Assembly: GCA_951406725.2 (NCBI GenBank)
Contig: OX597835.1
Location: 35,712,001 to 35,776,000 of the forward strand
Direction of reading: 5' to 3'
DNA length: 64,000 nt
Origin: Octopus vulgaris
Taxonomy: Eukaryota
The notes below the pieces were generated by a model. That model was given only the letters and a program-made list of their open reading frames with translations. It was not told where the DNA came from and made no database searches. Numbering within the stretch: the first letter of the stretch is position 1; each line of letters begins with the position of its first letter. The position numbers and the translations under genes are program-made. This document shows, one piece after another, positions 6,683 to 60,915 of the stretch.

Positions 6683-7272
6683 GCAGTACCAGGCATGCCC
6701 TGATGCAGTACCAGGCTTGCCCTGATGCAGTACCAGGCAGTGGCTCTCATGGCTTCTGATCTTAACTGATTAGTAGTGTTATCATGTACATTGTTTTGTC
6801 TTGGTATAAAAGATGGGCTACAGCAAATATTCTGCTCAATACCACAGATTTGCTTGTCAGTTGTTTGACCTTAACCAGTTGAGCATGTCCCTTAGTGGCT
6901 GACGATATGTGCATCTCTGATCACGAGCAGAAGTAGTGGGGGAGCATCATAGCCATGTGTTGAGAGGGATTGTTTGGGGTTTGAATAGTTCACCTCTGGA
7001 AACATGGGTGGTTCTTTCAACATCCTTAAACAACCCTTATTCAGGGACCGTTTGAGCGGGATGGGCTACTCAACCTGAAGAAAATTCTAACTGGGCCCCA
7101 CCTGCAAGGTCATGTGCTGTTTATCTTGATATGAGATCACCATGTCGCGCACATATGGTTGTGATGCATGTGCCTGGTGTACCTTTATCAGACGGGTAGT
7201 CATGATGGGTATATTGGGCTTCGTATATTTTACCCCAGTGTCACTTTGATGGCATGAACTGCTCTCTCACTC
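6683..7272 (+). mobile_element. About 555-bp non-coding (AAT)n-associated retroelement, family A copy 1
   Basis: Highly similar to 7396-7949, 8501-8811 and 43572-44112 (rc). Ends CTCTCTCACTC+(AAT)n. The 5' 22-mer is reiterated. Confidence 0.85.
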
Positions 7273-11393: not shown

Positions 11394-11474
<81 letters not shown>

Positions 11475-11477
11475 AAA

Positions 11478-11722
11478 GAGTAAAATTAATTAATTAATTA
11501 ATAATTAATAATTCCACCAAGTAGTGATTCGATATGTAAAAGACCATTATCGGTAAACTTAAACAATATTTATTATAATAACGGTTAGGCAAAAGAATTT
11601 GCTTCACCACACACAGAACTTTAGAAATAGCAGCCAAAGAATCTAGCTATTTCTTCTACTGAAATAAACAACTCCCAGACACAGAAGAAGAAATAGCTAG
11701 ATTCTTTGGCTGCTATTTCTAT
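11478..11722 (-). mobile_element. 3' part of the HHR element family seen at 21.6-22.2 kb, with a short inverted copy
   Basis: rc matches 21960-22170. TAGAAATAGCAGCCAAAGAATCTAGCTATTTCTTCT is repeated inverted at about 11685-11722. Adjacent to (TA)n. Confidence 0.7.
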
Positions 11723-11809
11723 ACATGGCCACAGCTCGTGAGCTGAAACTAGATAAATTATAATATATATATATACTCAAAATAAGCAACAAGAATAACT
11801 TCGGTAATT

Positions 11810-11893
11810 TGGTACGATCGTTTCACGCTACTTCATTTTATTAAATATTGTAAGTATTACAACAGTTTTCAAATGCTGAGCAATCATCAGCCA
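11810..11893 (-). ncRNA. Type I hammerhead ribozyme, extended stem II
   Basis: rc: TGG-CTGATGA-tTGCT...AGCGt-GAAAC-GATC-GTA-CCA. Confidence 0.7.
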
Positions 11894-11970
11894 TTAATAG
11901 AGGTTTTCCATTAATACATAATGTATTATGTATTTATGGAAATCATGTATTAATGGAAAACCTCTATTAA

Positions 11971-12054
11971 TGGCTGATGATTGCTCAGCATTTTAAAACT
12001 GTTGTAATACTTACAACATTTAATAAAATGATGTAGCGTGAAACGATCGTTCCA
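11971..12054 (+). ncRNA. Type I hammerhead ribozyme, extended stem II
   Basis: TGG-CTGATGA(11974)...GAAAC(12040)-GATC-GTT-CCA; inner hairpin TGTTGTAA/TTACAACA. Confidence 0.7.
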
Positions 12055-12954
12055 AATTACCGAAGATATTCTTGTTGCTTAATTTGATTATAATCATCCC
12101 ATGGATTTATATGGATAACACCATACAAAATTCTGGTGCATCTAACTTAAGTACCATATTCATCTGAATCTAAATTTTGCTGAACTTATATATAATACTA
12201 TGCATTACTATATACACTAATGCATTTATCATTATACTGTAATACATTCATTGGTCTAGAAGATACACACTAATCGTTGTTTACTATACGTTAATACACA
12301 CTAATCTATTTATTAACATGCACAAAGCGTGACTGCGTGGTAAGAAGCTTGCTTCGTAACCACATGCTTCCGGGTTCGGTCCCATTGCGAAGCACCTTGT
12401 CCAAGTGTCTTGGTCAAGCGATGGGAGACAAACACAGACGCAAAGACACACGCACTCTTACACACGCACATACACATGAGCACTGACACACACAGACACA
12501 TGCATACACGCACGAGAACACACGCACATATAGCAAACTGCGTATCATACTTAACGCAGACACATTATGGAAAACTCAAATAACTACGATAGTCGTGCTG
12601 AGATATCGTTTTCAGACGTATAATTGTGAATAACACGAATATATATTAGTAGCAGATGAAATCGGATGTTTGCCTATTTGCGATTCGTCAGTAGCCTGTA
12701 TCCACGAGCAATCATATGCCAAGACAAATTACCTCGTTTCTGATATAGTGAAATAATGATTGGCAAATCACAGGTGTTGCAGTTAAACGGACAGCTGAAT
12801 AAAAATTCGTCAGAAAAATTATTAGTTTAAAATAGCACCATGTATGTCATACATAAAGCAGATACATTATGTAAAGTTAGATCAAATGCGGTAATCATTC
12901 TGAGATTGTGTGTCTGATACACACGCAGTTTTAAAAAGAACTGAAAAATATTTT

Positions 12955-43571: not shown

Positions 43572-44112
43572 GAGTGAGAGAGCAGTGCATGCCATCAAAG
43601 TGACACTGAGGTAAAATATATGAAGCCCAGCATATCCATCTGATAACGGTACTCTAGGCACATGCATCACAACCATATGTACGCGACATGGTGATCTCAT
43701 ATCAAGATAAACAGCACATGAACTTGTAGGTGGGGCAAAGTTAGAATGTTCTTCTGGTCGAGTAGCCCATCCTGCTGAAAAGGTCCCTGAATAAGGGTCG
43801 TTTGAGGATGTTTAACGAAACACCCATGTTTCCAGAGGTGAAATATTCAAACCCCAAAGAATCCCTCTCAACACATGGCTATGATGCTCCCCACTACTTC
43901 TGCTCGTGATCAGAGATGCACATATCGTCAGCCACTAAGGGACATGCTCAACTGCTTAAGGTCAAACAACTGACAAGCAAATCTGTGGTATTGAGCAGAA
44001 TATTTGCTGTAGCCCATCTTTTATACCAAGACAAAACAATGTACATGATAACACTTCCAATCAGTTAAAATCAGAAGCCACGAGAGCCACTGCCTGGTAC
44101 TGCATCAGGGCA
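43572..44112 (-). mobile_element. Family A copy 4
   Basis: Reverse complement of 7396-7949 with the same 5' start and an (AAT)n tail. Confidence 0.85.
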
Positions 44113-47858: not shown

Positions 47859-48135
47859 CTTAACCACTACGCCACATGCCCGGGCATATGGCGTAGTGGT
47901 TAAGAGCGCGGGCTACTAAACCGGAGATTCCGAATTTGATTCCAGGCAGTGACCTTAATAAGGATAATAATAATTACCCAGGTTCAAAATTTCCTCAAGA
48001 CACCAGATGAAGCCTGGGGCGTATATCAGCCGAAACGTTGTGTTAACAACAAACTAGATGAGGACAAATATCCGTCAAATATAAATAATGTAAATAGTGT
48101 ACATAATTCCTCATCTCTTAAATATAGAAGTGTAT
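47859..48135 (+). mobile_element. tRNA-headed element carrying a degenerate hammerhead, with 23-bp 5' inversion
   Basis: GGGCATATGGCGTAGTGGTTAAG head mirrored at 47859-47881; B-box-like AATTTGATTCC; GACAC-CAGATGA-aGCCTG..CAGCC-GAAAC-GTT-GTGTT at 47999-48044. Confidence 0.65.
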
Positions 48136-48202: not shown

Positions 48203-48441
48203 TTCTTATTTTTTTATTGCCCACAAGGGGCTAAACATAGAGAGGGGACAAACAAGAACAGACAAAGGAATTAAGTCGATTACATTGACCCTAGTGCGTA
48301 ACTGGTTCTTAATTTATCGACCCCGAAGTTATGAAAGGCAAAGTCGACCTCGGCGGAATTTGAACTCAAAACGTAACGGCAGACAAAATACCGCTAAGCA
48401 TTTCGCCCGGCGTGCTAACGTTTCTGCCAGCTCGCCGCCTT
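48203..48441 (-). mobile_element. SINE family C inserted into an HHR element (about 48140-48600)
   Basis: rc of the 25401-25632 type; the flanks join to resemble 60722-60915 (rc). Confidence 0.85.
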
Positions 48442-48456
48442 ATCGCCTTGGTATCC

Positions 48457-48493
48457 TGTTTCTGAAGAAGAGCTTTGCTCGAAACGTAAAACA
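48457..48493 (+). ncRNA. Minimal Penelope-type hammerhead
   Basis: TGTTT-CTGAAGA-a-GAGC-ttt-GCTC-GAAAC-GTA-AAACA. Confidence 0.8.
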
Positions 48494-49025
48494 ACCATTC
48501 ATTCTTCCTTTCTCTGATCGTCGTATAAATAATTTGCATATACTAAGTACACGCGTAGTTGCGTTTCTTCTTGTCTTTTTATCCGCTTTTTTTTAATTAC
48601 TATTTTCCACACGCTCACAAGAAATGCTTTCTACTATCGCGAACTCTTTGTACCATCGAATTACATTACGTTATTCATTCGGAGTGCGCCATTTCTTCAT
48701 CATGATTATATATATTTATACATATGCATATATATATATAATGTATATGTATGCATGTGTATGTGTGTATATACACTCAATATATATATATATATATAAT
48801 TAATCAATATAGGGTGGCAAAAAAAATTTTGTAGAATTCTTTTGCCACCAGCGGCCAAGTGGGAAAAAATTAAATAGTCATAGACCATTTTTAAGTTCAA
48901 CATCAACAATCAAGGAACGGCCATAATAGGCCATTCACCCACTAGAAATAACAGCCAAAGCTTCAACCGCAAATAAAAATTAATTCCGTAAACCAGGAGA
49001 AAATTTAAAAAACATTTACCTTGTA

Positions 49026-49132
49026 ATTTCTTATACGATATACCGTTTCATCTGCTGATTAATGGTAAACTAACCTGATTAAATTAAATCAAGCCAATCT
49101 TCCAAAGGCCCTCAGATTCTTCAGTAAGAAAT
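49026..49132 (-). ncRNA. Type I hammerhead, unit 1
   Basis: rc: ATTTCTTA-CTGAAGA-ATCTG-(58 nt)-CAGAT-GAAAC-GGTATATC-GTA-TAAGAAAT. Confidence 0.9.
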
Positions 49133-49518
49133 AGCCCAAGTCGGAACAGATATTTTCACGAGGCAAATCCGACCTTGCCAAGGTTATATCTGACCTAAAA
49201 TTTTCAAATCGTCGCACTCGCGCCAAAATTTATCGGCAGCAAATAAATATAAGCCGTCGATTCCATTACGGAATTAACCAGAAAATTCATAATTAATCAA
49301 TATAGGGTGGCAAAAAAAATTTTGTAGAATTCTTTTGCCACCAGCGGCCAAGTGGGAAAAAATTAAATAGTCATAGACCATTTTTAAGTTCAACATCAAC
49401 AATCAAGGAACGGCCATAATAGGCCATTCACCCACTAGAAATAACAGCCAAAGCTTCAACCGCAAATAAAAATTAATTCCGTAAACCAGGAGAAAATTTA
49501 AAAAACATTTACCTTGTA

Positions 49519-49625
49519 ATTTCTTATACGATATACCGTTTCATCTGCTGATTAATGGTAAACTAACCTGATTAAATTAAATCAAGCCAATCTTCCAAAG
49601 GCCCTCAGATTCTTCAGTAAGAAAT
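49519..49625 (-). ncRNA. Type I hammerhead, unit 2
   Basis: Same sequence as unit 1. Confidence 0.9.
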
Positions 49626-50012
49626 AGCCCAAGTCGGAACAGATATTTTCACGAGGCAAATCCGACCTTGCCAAGGTTATATCTGACCTAAAATTTTCAA
49701 ATCGTCGCACTCGCGCCAAAATTTATCGGCAGCAAATAAATATAAGCCGTCGATTCCATTACGGAATTAACCAGAAAATTCATAATTAATCAATATAGGG
49801 TGGCAAAAAAAATTTTGTAGAATTCTTTTGCCACCAGCGGCCTAGTGGGAAAAAATTAAATAGTCATAGACCATTTTTAAGTTCAACATCAACAATCAAG
49901 GAACGGCCATAATAGGCCATTCACCCACTAGAAATAACAGCTAAAGCTTCAACCGCAAATAAAAATTAATTCCGTAAACCAGGAGAAAATTAAAAAAAAC
50001 ATTTACCTTGTA

Positions 50013-50119
50013 ATTTCTTATACGATATACCGTTTCATCTGCTGATTAATGGTAAACTAACCTGATTAAATTAAATCAAGCCAATCTTCCAAAGGCCCTC
50101 AGATTCTTCAGTAAGAAAT
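50013..50119 (-). ncRNA. Type I hammerhead, unit 3
   Basis: Same sequence as unit 1. Confidence 0.9.
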
Positions 50120-50505
50120 AGCCCAAGTCGGAACAGATATTTTCACGAGGCAAATCCGACCTTGCCAAGGTTATATCTGACCTAAAATTTTCAAATCGTC
50201 GCACTCGCGCCAAAATTTATCGGTAGCAAATAAATATAAGCCGTCGATTCCATTACGGAATTAACCAGAAAATTCATAATTAATCAATATAGGGTGGCAA
50301 AAAAAATTTTGTAGAATTCTTTTGCCACCAGCGGCCTAGTGGGAAAAAATTAAATAGTCATAGACCATTTTTAAGTTCAACATCAACAATCAAGGAACGG
50401 CCATAATAGGCCATTCACCCACTAGAAATAACAGCCAAAGCTTCAACCGCAAATAAAAATTAATTCCGTAAACCAGGAGAAAATTTAAAAAACATTTACC
50501 TTGTA

Positions 50506-50612
50506 ATTTCTTATACGATATACCGTTTCATCTGCTGATTAATGGTAAACTAACCTGATTAAATTAAATCAAGCCAATCTTCCAAAGGCCCTCAGATTCT
50601 TCAGTAAGAAAT
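50506..50612 (-). ncRNA. Type I hammerhead, unit 4
   Basis: Same sequence as unit 1. Confidence 0.9.
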
Positions 50613-50739
50613 AGCCCAAGTCGGAACAGATATTTTCACGAGGCAAATCCGCGAGTGCGACGATTTGAAAATTTTAGGTCAGATATAACCTTGGCAAGGT
50701 CGGATTTGCCTCGTGAAAATATCTGTTCCGACTTGGGCT

Positions 50740-50846
50740 ATTTCTTACTGAAGAATCTGAGGGCCTTTGGAAGATTGGCTTGATTTAATTTAATCAGGTT
50801 AGTTTACCATTAATCAGCAGATGAAACGGTATATCGTATAAGAAAT
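50740..50846 (+). ncRNA. Type I hammerhead, inverted copy
   Basis: Stem I 50740-47/50839-46, CTGAAGA 50748-54, stem II 50755-59/50818-22, GAAAC 50823-27, GTA 50836-38. Confidence 0.9.
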
Positions 50847-50971
50847 TACAAGGTAAATGTTTTTTAAATTTTCTCCTGGTTTACGGAATTAATTTTTATT
50901 TGCGGTTGAAGCTTTGGCTGTTATTTCTAGTGGGTGAATGGCCTATTATAGCCGTTCCTTGATTGTTGATG

Positions 50972-51002
<31 letters not shown>

Positions 51003-51259
51003 CGCACATACATACACAGATAGAAGAAAGAAGAGAGAGAGAGAGATTAAATATGCCAGATTATTTCGTTTTCTGGCCATAGCGAACAAAGCGAAAGGTG
51101 CCGTCTGATCCTTAACCATCCACAAGGGTATCATGTGAACGACTATGGCACTACGTATATGCACTGTTGTACGAGTTTCCAGTAAGATGGTAAGTGCGTC
51201 TTCATGCAGAAGTGGCCATACATTGATAATGCACAACACTAACAATAGTGCAATCTGTG

Positions 51260-59554: not shown

Positions 59555-60490
59555 TGTTTCATTCCATTTATTTTAATCCTTAGTTTTCATCAACAATTCC
59601 AACAATCCAATCAATAATATCTTTTCCCGTTCATTGTTCACGACTTCTTGCCAACCTTCCACTAGTTTGTCAATAGTTTGACGGAAAAACAAAAAATATC
59701 TGAGTAATGACTCGGAGTATTCCACATGCCACTTTTTCAGCCTCGAGTCATGGTTGATAAAAACGCCTGACAGACTGTTGGACAGCGACCGAAAGAAGCG
59801 ATATTCAGAAGGCGTTATATCAAGAGTACACAGCAGGTGAAGTAGAACTTCGCAATCTAGCTCTTGAAAAGCATTTGCGATCAAATTAGCGGCTTGCGGA
59901 AGAGCGTTGCTGTGTTCAAGAATCATACCATGTTGCTCGATGGGTTGCCGTCGAGTGATGGTGACGAGCAATGGTATCACGAGAGCGCCCCATCTGCTGG
60001 GCCAATTCCTTTGTAGATTTGCTCAGCAAATGTGGCGCTCGTTCTTAGTGGATTAGTGAGGTCTTTCTGGATAAATTGACTTAACTGATTCTCATTGAAC
60101 TGAAGAGCTCTTCCGAAACGTGGAGAATCTGTGGGGTCGTATTTTCCTTGAAGCTTGAAGACCAATTTCTGCCAGTTTTTTTTTCAGAAATAGTGCCATT
60201 ACTGTAGACCACGCAAATGTCTCGAGTGTCTTTGATATCTTTGAAATACTGACCGAAAGCGATGAGGATCAGGTGTCAAAAATGATCCCTTTTTTTCTAT
60301 TTGGCACTCTATCGTCATATGTCGGAAAAAGAGATAAAATTTATTCAAATTAAAAACAAACACCAAACAAAAGCTGAAAAGGAAGAACAGCTACAAAACA
60401 GAAAATAAACCCAAAACAGTTCAATGAAAAGGTTTTCATGTTAATTCAAATATCATCGGGTAAAAACACAAACGAATTCACCTGACATAT
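59555..60490 (-). mobile_element. Degenerate mariner
   Basis: DSPRFGR, LEHSNALP, TLDITPSEYRFFRSL and FRQTIDKLVEGWQEVV in broken frames. Confidence 0.8.
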
Positions 60491-60721: not shown

Positions 60722-60915
60722 GTGAACAAGCAAGAAATAACAACAACGCGAGGACGTGGAATAAGTAGTGTGTTATTGGACGCTCAGGAAAGGAAAGAAA
60801 AGAAAGAGGACTTCACGTTTCGAGCGGAGCTCTTCGTCAGAAATATAGAAAAAGTCCAAAGAAGGGAAGACGGAGAAAGAAAAAAATCGCCAACGATGCA
60901 CACGCGGTCACATAT
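60722..60915 (-). mobile_element. Short HHR element (family of 48140-48600); hammerhead at 60811-60845
   Basis: rc: TTT-CTGACGA-a-GAGC-tcc-GCTC-GAAAC-GTG; flanking sequence similar to the 48.1-48.6 kb copy. Confidence 0.7.

Follow-up and report, generated by a model that had tools for sequence, protein, structure and literature searches.

A type I hammerhead at positions 50740–50846 (plus strand) of a 64,000-nt stretch of Octopus vulgaris DNA, hereafter the window, has 68 nt between the two halves of its catalytic core, and raises the question of what so long a helix II is doing there. The original prediction, made from this stretch alone, was that such hammerheads recur in three sequence-divergent families and form a lineage-specific subclass, whose extension may supply tertiary contacts or a handle for binding the reverse transcriptase (RT), and which searches limited in length would miss. 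We ask here how common the long arm is, how far it is constrained, and in which mobile elements it is found.

Long-armed hammerheads in the window

The focal motif belongs to a repeat that we call family A, and everything that the original prediction described in it is present. Helix I is 8 bp long (ATTTCTTA/TAAGAAAT), the core reads CTGAAGA...GAAA, and the cleavage triplet is GUA, with a predicted cut after position 50838. Helix II (50755–50822) starts from a 5-bp base, ATCTG/CAGAT, which encloses 58 nt, and continues through an internal loop and 3 bp into a G-U-rich apical helix (50772–50805) of 14 bp, five of them G-U pairs, with a UAAUUU loop. The motif folds with z = −3.85, and 0 of 200 shuffles folded equally well. 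Helix III (50826–50837) is a self-complementary stretch of 12 nt that is predicted to pair between two copies, as in a dimer-type hammerhead. In the predicted fold of an RNA of two family A units, helix III pairing is 0.82 between copies and 0.05 within a copy, while helix I is present in the best fold but has an ensemble probability of 0.13–0.18.

Five identical copies of the motif are present, four on the minus strand in a tandem array and one, the focal motif, in an inverted piece; the original prediction missed this context. The array (48796–50651, minus strand) holds 3.8 tandem copies of a 493-nt unit without an open reading frame (ORF), with hammerheads at 50612–50506, 50119–50013, 49625–49519 and 49132–49026. 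The inverted partial unit with the focal hammerhead lies at 50650–50976 (plus strand), and the whole insertion is flanked by (TA)n runs. Judged by its sequence, this is a retrozyme-like ORF-less tandem and inverted repeat of a young family (41 matches at 99–100% identity among the matches listed; 1,753 candidates). The family A loci examined (30 loci, 14 sites) are tandem multimers, mostly with inversions, and have two preferred end points; unit length across subfamilies is 473–493 nt, and multi-copy subfamilies occur with 65, 66–68 and 76–77 nt between core halves. Contigs of presumed-RNA runs cover family A as well as family B, described next, but contigs cannot display RNA ends, and no loose poly(A) end was seen among those listed.

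Two further families in the window carry long arms. Family B is the 3′ end of a Neptune-type Penelope-like element (PLE; 11918–12194, plus strand), whose hammerhead has its core at 11974, a 59-nt arm and a GUU triplet; an inverted family B piece (11772–11922, minus strand) bears a second hammerhead with its core at 11890 and the triplet GUA. This pair had been recognized earlier and does have 59 nt between core halves; a U-U mismatch at 10.1–11.1 in both copies had gone unnoticed. Family C (21649–22173, plus strand; ~591-nt unit) has its hammerhead at 21805–21889, with the 54 nt between core halves that had been reported for it. Also overlooked was that core position 3 is G in this copy vs C in 34 of 35 aligned family C copies. 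Since C3G abolishes cleavage in the experiments cited from PMC11167929, we predict that this copy is dead.

Families A and C are both made of dispersed ORF-less tandem units, each of which carries a type I hammerhead; 100 family A loci and 30 family C loci were examined for a PLE ORF upstream, and none was found. In the window, families A and B carry the type I core C3-U4-G5-A6-N7-G8-A9, G12-A13-A14-A15.1, U16.1-H17. The extensions of families A, B and C align with one another no better than shuffles (p 0.21–0.93). The claim of long stems in three sequence-divergent families holds. Families A and C and a fragment near 11.5 kb have only one sequence in common, a motif of 17–18 nt. This fragment is an inverted pair (11466–11740) with ~80% identity to the family C 3′ tail; it adjoins the family B insertion and contains the motif.

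For comparison, the window also holds minimal hammerheads. One (48457–48495, plus strand) has 12 nt between core halves and is without a helix III loop, and another of the same kind (60811–60845, minus strand) has a G at position 17, a further detail absent from the earlier description. Other PLE families in the window contribute short or degenerate hammerhead-like remnants at 60100 (plus strand), 61374 (minus strand) and 48000–48040.

Abundance in the octopus genome

The original prediction proposed a search that allows a longer helix II. We ran the core pattern CTGANGA-N(45-72)-GAAACNNNNGTA, which sets no requirement for helices I or II, genome-wide (2.8 Gb), with the reversed pattern as control. 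It gave 26,340 matches vs 488 in the control, a 54-fold excess, and a pattern specific to family A, the focal superfamily, gave 3,138 vs 0; the long-armed hammerheads are therefore not chance. Wider spacing (73–102 nt) gave 6,347 matches vs 507 in the control, narrower spacing (8–37 nt) 9,036 vs 628, a version with a 10-nt helix III 3,476 vs 897, and a minimal-motif pattern 21,270 vs 1,228. By these raw counts, which include nested calls and at least one chance-matching repeat, long-armed motifs are at least as common here as short ones (~39,000 matches, control ~1,900, vs ~30,000, control ~1,900).

It is extremely improbable that repeats have simply multiplied chance matches to the core halves, with the "arm" as no more than the sequence in between. 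Such matches do occur: an abundant repeat in the window (43812–43938, minus strand, and near 6899, plus strand) fits the pattern with core halves 92 nt apart, without a proper helix II base or palindromic helix III, and we rejected this candidate (43931/6899) as a likely chance match that inflates the pattern counts. Under a strict test, 8 of the first 30 unselected matches were also without one of the two helices (26 had two helix I pairs, 26 had pairs 10.2 and 10.3, and 22 had both). However, the excess over the control, the pairing of helices I and II in 90–98% of clusters, which the pattern does not ask for, and the covariation in family B (below) already largely refute this reading.

The clusters were built from those 30 loci, 20 of 70 further listed matches chosen as different, and earlier loci. 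All clustered motifs had passed a filter for a self-complementary helix III, and 48 clusters had at least 43 nt between core halves; they are not independent, because the set with an 8-nt helix III links into 26 superfamilies. The long-armed matches fall into dozens of sequence groups, and helices I and II covary. Pairs 1.1 and 1.2 are formed in 94% of the 48 clusters, 10.2 in 90% and 10.3 in 98%, vs ~40% when partners are shuffled. Helix II pairs in register in 56–81% out to pair 12, and helix I pairing falls off after 4 bp, with 2–4 bp conserved. Pair 10.1–11.1 is G-C in only 12 of the 48 clusters and unpaired in 18. Three helices flank the core, helix I is open, and covariation supports them, as in a type I hammerhead.

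Rfam returned no hammerhead family in the whole window at the gathering threshold, nor in 48300–51100 at E ≤ 10, and the published descriptor of minimal PLE hammerheads (Cervera 2014), as far as that source was covered, stops at a helix II of 3–7 bp with a loop of 3–10 nt and has no helix III loop. Length-limited searches do miss these motifs, as had been anticipated, and because both Rfam and the published descriptor pass over long-armed motifs, animal ribozyme catalogues are probably incomplete.

Constraint on the helix II arm

Covariation in the extension had been proposed as a check on its importance, and compensatory changes are indeed found there. With the caveat that kinship among sequences inflates covariation scores, both sides change in 13 of 22 pairs in family B (22 sequences), vs 7.8 in shuffles and at most 5 in slid controls, and in its apical helix both sides change in 3 of 8 pairs. 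In family A (23 sequences), pairing is present in 99.2% of cells for the 17 distal pairs, of which 12 vary, 11 on one side and 1 on both; the measure of two-sided change for the whole structure lies within the shuffles (31/500). The distal arm alone, folded across the 48 clusters, has a median z of −0.73 (39 of 48 below 0, 9 of 48 below −2), vs +0.42 and +0.12 for the flanks. Pairing of the arm is thus kept, moderately. So modest an advantage over shuffles counts against our reading of the arm as tolerated yet constrained in its pairing, which is set out below; so does the conservation of arm sequence inside families A and B, which is good and exceeds what pure tolerance requires.

The length of the arm varies. 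Among relatives whose downstream flanks are homologous and whose helix II base is similar, 25 vs 60 nt lie between core halves, and another flank-homologous group has 55, 73, 77, 80 or 93 nt; in one further group, flank homology did not connect the members of a length series. These alignments indicate that arm length is not conserved among relatives and that arm sequence is not common to families. A defined module finds no support as a general rule, because close relatives carry 25 or 60 nt; the original prediction, right on the pattern and on the blind spot of searches, is only partly supported on function. We also considered the arm as compensation for the weak 10.1–11.1 pair, but short-armed relatives among the matches listed share the same weak pair.

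A further reading is that conservation concerns structure, the motifs having little or no catalytic activity and selection acting on the fold of the element's 3′ RNA; we regard this as distinctly unlikely. The variable 10.1–11.1 pair and the short conserved part of helix I would fit it, and so would work on related ribozymes: PLE hammerheads have low activity in vitro (PMC4209133), and no cleavage was seen for 8 of 9 predicted retrozyme dimers (2026 preprint, 10.64898/2026.07.22.740005), both as given in the portions of these sources covered here. It sits poorly, on the other hand, with a core that is exact in copies numbering tens of thousands from families unrelated in sequence, and with the compensatory changes that keep helix III self-complementary. 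Self-cutting of the long-armed hammerheads is a prediction, and their activity is uncertain, given the failed dimers of the preprint and a PLE hammerhead (Poseidon) that cleaves only with its protein and is dispensable for insertion in vitro (PMC11167929).

Candidate tertiary contacts

Across the 48 clusters, pairing between the flank and helix II did not exceed cross-family shuffles (p 0.12–0.90), a comparison with low power for family-specific contacts, and distal helix I gave no signal over cross-family shuffles either (p = 0.72). The suggestion that the extension supplies tertiary contacts is thus unsupported in general, and a base-paired contact is suggested for the family A superfamily only.

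In family A, the first internal loop has a 5′ strand that is complementary to the 5 nt preceding helix I. The candidate pseudoknot strands in the window are GGGCU, directly 5′ of helix I (50735–50739, plus strand), and GGCCU in the internal loop of helix II (50762–50766, plus strand); in another family A subfamily, AGGUU or AGGUC is complementary to GACCU or AACCU. Among the 68 sequences that could be anchored, out of 70 distinct ones, 62 have a putative contact of 4 bp or more. This contact shows one two-sided change, from C-G to U-A, and both strands shift 2–3 nt coreward together. Later-found sequences keep both strands in 16 of 19 cases while helices I and II diverge, with zero new compensatory changes. 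From these alignments, the chances are roughly balanced that the internal loop docks on the strand before helix I through 4–5 bp, in family A alone. Two other pairings were tried and rejected: the downstream AGGGU as partner of the loop, which lends no support because its sequence does not vary, and self-pairing of GGCC in the loop, which is lost in one subfamily.

The family A candidate resembles the pseudoknotted hammerheads of Perreault et al. (2011, PMC3088659) in its putative Watson-Crick contact of 4–5 bp, which would join the flank of helix I to helix II, and in helix lengths that shift together. Whereas the contacts in the covered part of that paper use a terminal loop or tail, the candidate would use an internal loop with at least 17 further pairs beyond it.

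Host elements and relatives

Family B is a Neptune-type PLE, a clade name that we take from domain order and motif. Its ORF, as read from translations, encodes an RT, then a CX2-5CxxC-type motif and then a C-terminal GIY-YIG endonuclease, which is the layout of the Neptune clade in Craig et al. (2021, PMC8557442). The family B endonuclease has its closest protein relative in Octopus sinensis (86% over 63 residues); Pfam gave no match on three ORF fragments, and neither a word-based protein search for longer relatives nor a scan of viral contigs found anything. A long asparagine-rich, microsatellite-like linker joins RT and endonuclease in these Neptune-type ORFs. Among 50 Neptune-type loci in this genome, 27 have a hammerhead at most 1.5 kb downstream, and 25 of the 26 distinct ones have 48–60 nt between core halves.

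The non-octopus relatives comprise 100 loci on metagenome and MAG contigs, retrieved with one endonuclease peptide pattern (the best 80 of 439 plus 20). A downstream hammerhead is present at 54 of the 100, and all 33 distinct ones have 11–25 nt between core halves; 22 of the 46 loci without one had less than 400 nt of downstream sequence. The octopus arm is two to four times longer than in these related animal elements. The median distance from endonuclease to hammerhead is 143 nt in the non-octopus relatives vs 1,036 nt in family B, and G10.1–C11.1 occurs in 28 of the 33 distinct non-octopus hammerheads vs 12 of 48 octopus clusters. A relaxed look at 45 of the 100 loci gave more motifs of 11–25 nt and six long calls (47–113 nt), which were nested over a short motif or far from the endonuclease and were not counted. 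Because all 33 distinct non-octopus hammerheads have 11–25 nt, the long arm is not Neptune-wide, as judged from these metagenome and MAG loci. The lineage-specific distribution proposed earlier is supported to the extent that the arm is absent from these 33 of 33, with O. vulgaris as the only cephalopod genome covered.

Helix III measures 10 nt in all 33 distinct non-octopus Neptune-type hammerheads; family B has 8 nt here, and family A 12 nt. Twenty Neptune-type PLE loci come from genomes that are catalogued under bacteria, a hint that these assemblies contain DNA of animal hosts. In the supplement of PMC8557442, the 3′ ends of Naiad_Ovul and Naiad_Obim have "half-core" ends which, by eye, consist of the blocks cut site, GAAA and CUGAUGA, where the strands of helices I and III match and helix II is very short; this block order is that of non-circularly permuted type-SGC hammerheads, as described in the part of PMC10085705 covered. 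No Naiad-type motif of this kind was found among 397 loci examined. Six helix III palindromes were absent from the Naiad, Hydra and Chlamys consensus sequences, where line breaks could hide some.

These comparisons bear on whether the long arm is a binding handle for the RT-endonuclease protein, which might chaperone cleavage or position reverse transcription. The protein dependence of the Poseidon hammerhead would suit such a role, as would the conservation of the arm within families A and B, the invariant-looking apical loop of family A, and the location of the arm 40–230 nt from preferred 3′ ends. A handle in this sense is nevertheless unlikely: neither sequence nor length is common across families, short-armed relatives with homologous flanks spread too, and the non-octopus Neptune-type elements manage with 11–25 nt.

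Very unlikely, in our estimation, is that the arm carries and partly hides a polyadenylation signal just upstream of the cut site. Of 60 distinct family B sequences, 97% do have AAUAAA or AUUAAA on the 3′ side of helix II, ~24 nt upstream of the cut, and AUUAAA is similarly placed in several family A subfamilies. But the hexamer is found there in only 4 of 26 superfamilies, which is about the expectation for AT-rich sequence, and the youngest family A subfamily, the one in the window, is without the signal. Separately, one octopus superfamily carries AAUAAA or AUUAAA immediately past the cut in 8 of 11 sequences, and among non-octopus Neptune-type hammerheads 6 of 37 have the hexamer at this place.

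Comparison with known hammerheads

The octopus motifs are like the minimal hammerheads of PLEs in their type I core, short helix I, self-complementary helix III (which implies dimers), position at the 3′ end of PLEs, and dispersed truncated copies. While minimal PLE hammerheads have a helix II of 3–8 bp, a loop of 3–10 nt and a conserved G10.1–C11.1, the octopus motifs have 45–100 nt between core halves (median ~20 predicted pairs), a variable 10.1–11.1 pair, and a helix III that is a palindrome of 8 or 12 nt. The window families, with 54–68 nt and a helix III of 8–12 nt, fall outside the definition of Cervera 2014. The premise that PLE hammerheads are minimal with a short stem II needs a small correction, as a larger than usual helix II of 7–8 bp has already been described for them (PMC4209133). 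The motifs do not match the canonical metazoan type I hammerhead either (6-bp helix I, 4-bp helix II, loop 1–loop 2 contact), as only 2–4 bp of helix I are conserved, helix II is extended, and distal helix I is without signal.

Families A and C share with the non-LTR retrozymes of animals (Cervera & De la Pena 2020, PMC7229834; Li et al., 10.64898/2026.07.22.740005) their ORF-less tandem units with one type I hammerhead each, dispersal as multimers, and co-occurrence with PLEs. Their units, 473–493 nt and ~591 nt, compare with ~170–400 nt and 51–972 in the covered portions of the two sources, respectively. They differ in their long helix II and their PLE-style inverted 5′ pieces. Family B, for its part, is like Neptune clade PLEs (PMC8557442) in domain layout, (TA)n targets, inverted truncated copies and two 3′ ends, and unlike other Neptune-type elements in its ~1 kb gap between endonuclease and hammerhead and its arm of 48–60 nt vs 11–25 nt.

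In the portions of the literature covered, a "long" helix II means 6–8 bp (PMC4209133, PMC7229834, PMC8557442, PMC10085705, PMC3088659, PMC11167929, PMC13725137, PMC6155905, PMC7761336, PMC13282606 and 10.64898/2026.07.22.740005). Craig et al. (PMC8557442) give a spacer of 7–17 nt and eight Naiad cases with core halves 35–50 nt apart, and the O. vulgaris repeat paper does not contain the word "ribozyme". We found no description of the long-helix-II variant in this literature; Lunse 2017 and Arkhipova 2017, outside its coverage, could hold examples, and absence from print is not established. The long-armed hammerhead is real, abundant and apparently undescribed; it varies the structure of a known ribozyme, and the elements that carry it are of a known kind.

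Proposed mechanism and implications

The explanation that we favor, and think probable, is that these are type I hammerheads at the 3′ ends of a Neptune-type PLE and of ORF-less repeats likely mobilized by PLEs, in which helix II is a tolerated, pairing-constrained arm and not a shared module. Helix II is best read as an imperfect rod, with 45–100 nt between core halves, that forms a telescoping arm on dimer-type hammerheads. We observed directly that the cores are intact, that helices I–III covary, that the arm is long and paired and changes length at its tip, that insertions in (TA)n are dispersed, tandem and inverted, and that family B is linked to its ORF; dimer cutting and copying back are taken over from established hammerhead and retrozyme biology. 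Other observations count against the explanation, namely the single compensatory event behind the pseudoknot, the single two-sided pair in the family A apical helix, the low ensemble probability of helix I in the two-unit fold, the failed dimers and the protein-dependent, dispensable PLE hammerhead of earlier work, and the absence of a parent ORF from family A and C loci.

By analogy with those systems, read-through transcripts of two units would pair their self-complementary helix III as double hammerheads, the paired dimers would be cut after GUA or GUC, freeing unit-length RNA, and a PLE protein would copy this RNA back as multimers. Catalysis would need the base of helix II only. The tip could then grow and shrink by insertions, and would be kept as long as it folds back and closes the junction. 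Single families could co-opt an internal loop for docking: in family A, the first internal loop would replace the usual terminal loop II and pair with the 4–5 nt directly 5′ of helix I.

A more far-reaching interpretation, which we put forward tentatively as possible and not as expected, is that animal hammerheads include a large class, so far overlooked, whose helix II acts as a working domain, with an internal loop that docks, as in the family A pseudoknot, and a rod beyond it that serves the retroelement protein. If this were true, counts of animal hammerheads from length-limited searches would be too low, and the absence of hammerheads from some "hammerhead-less" PLE clades could be an artefact of searching. 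The role of PLE hammerheads and the contribution of helix II are described as unresolved in the literature covered here, and for probing both, the natural short- and long-armed relatives, together with a young, near-identical tandem family, are ready constructs.
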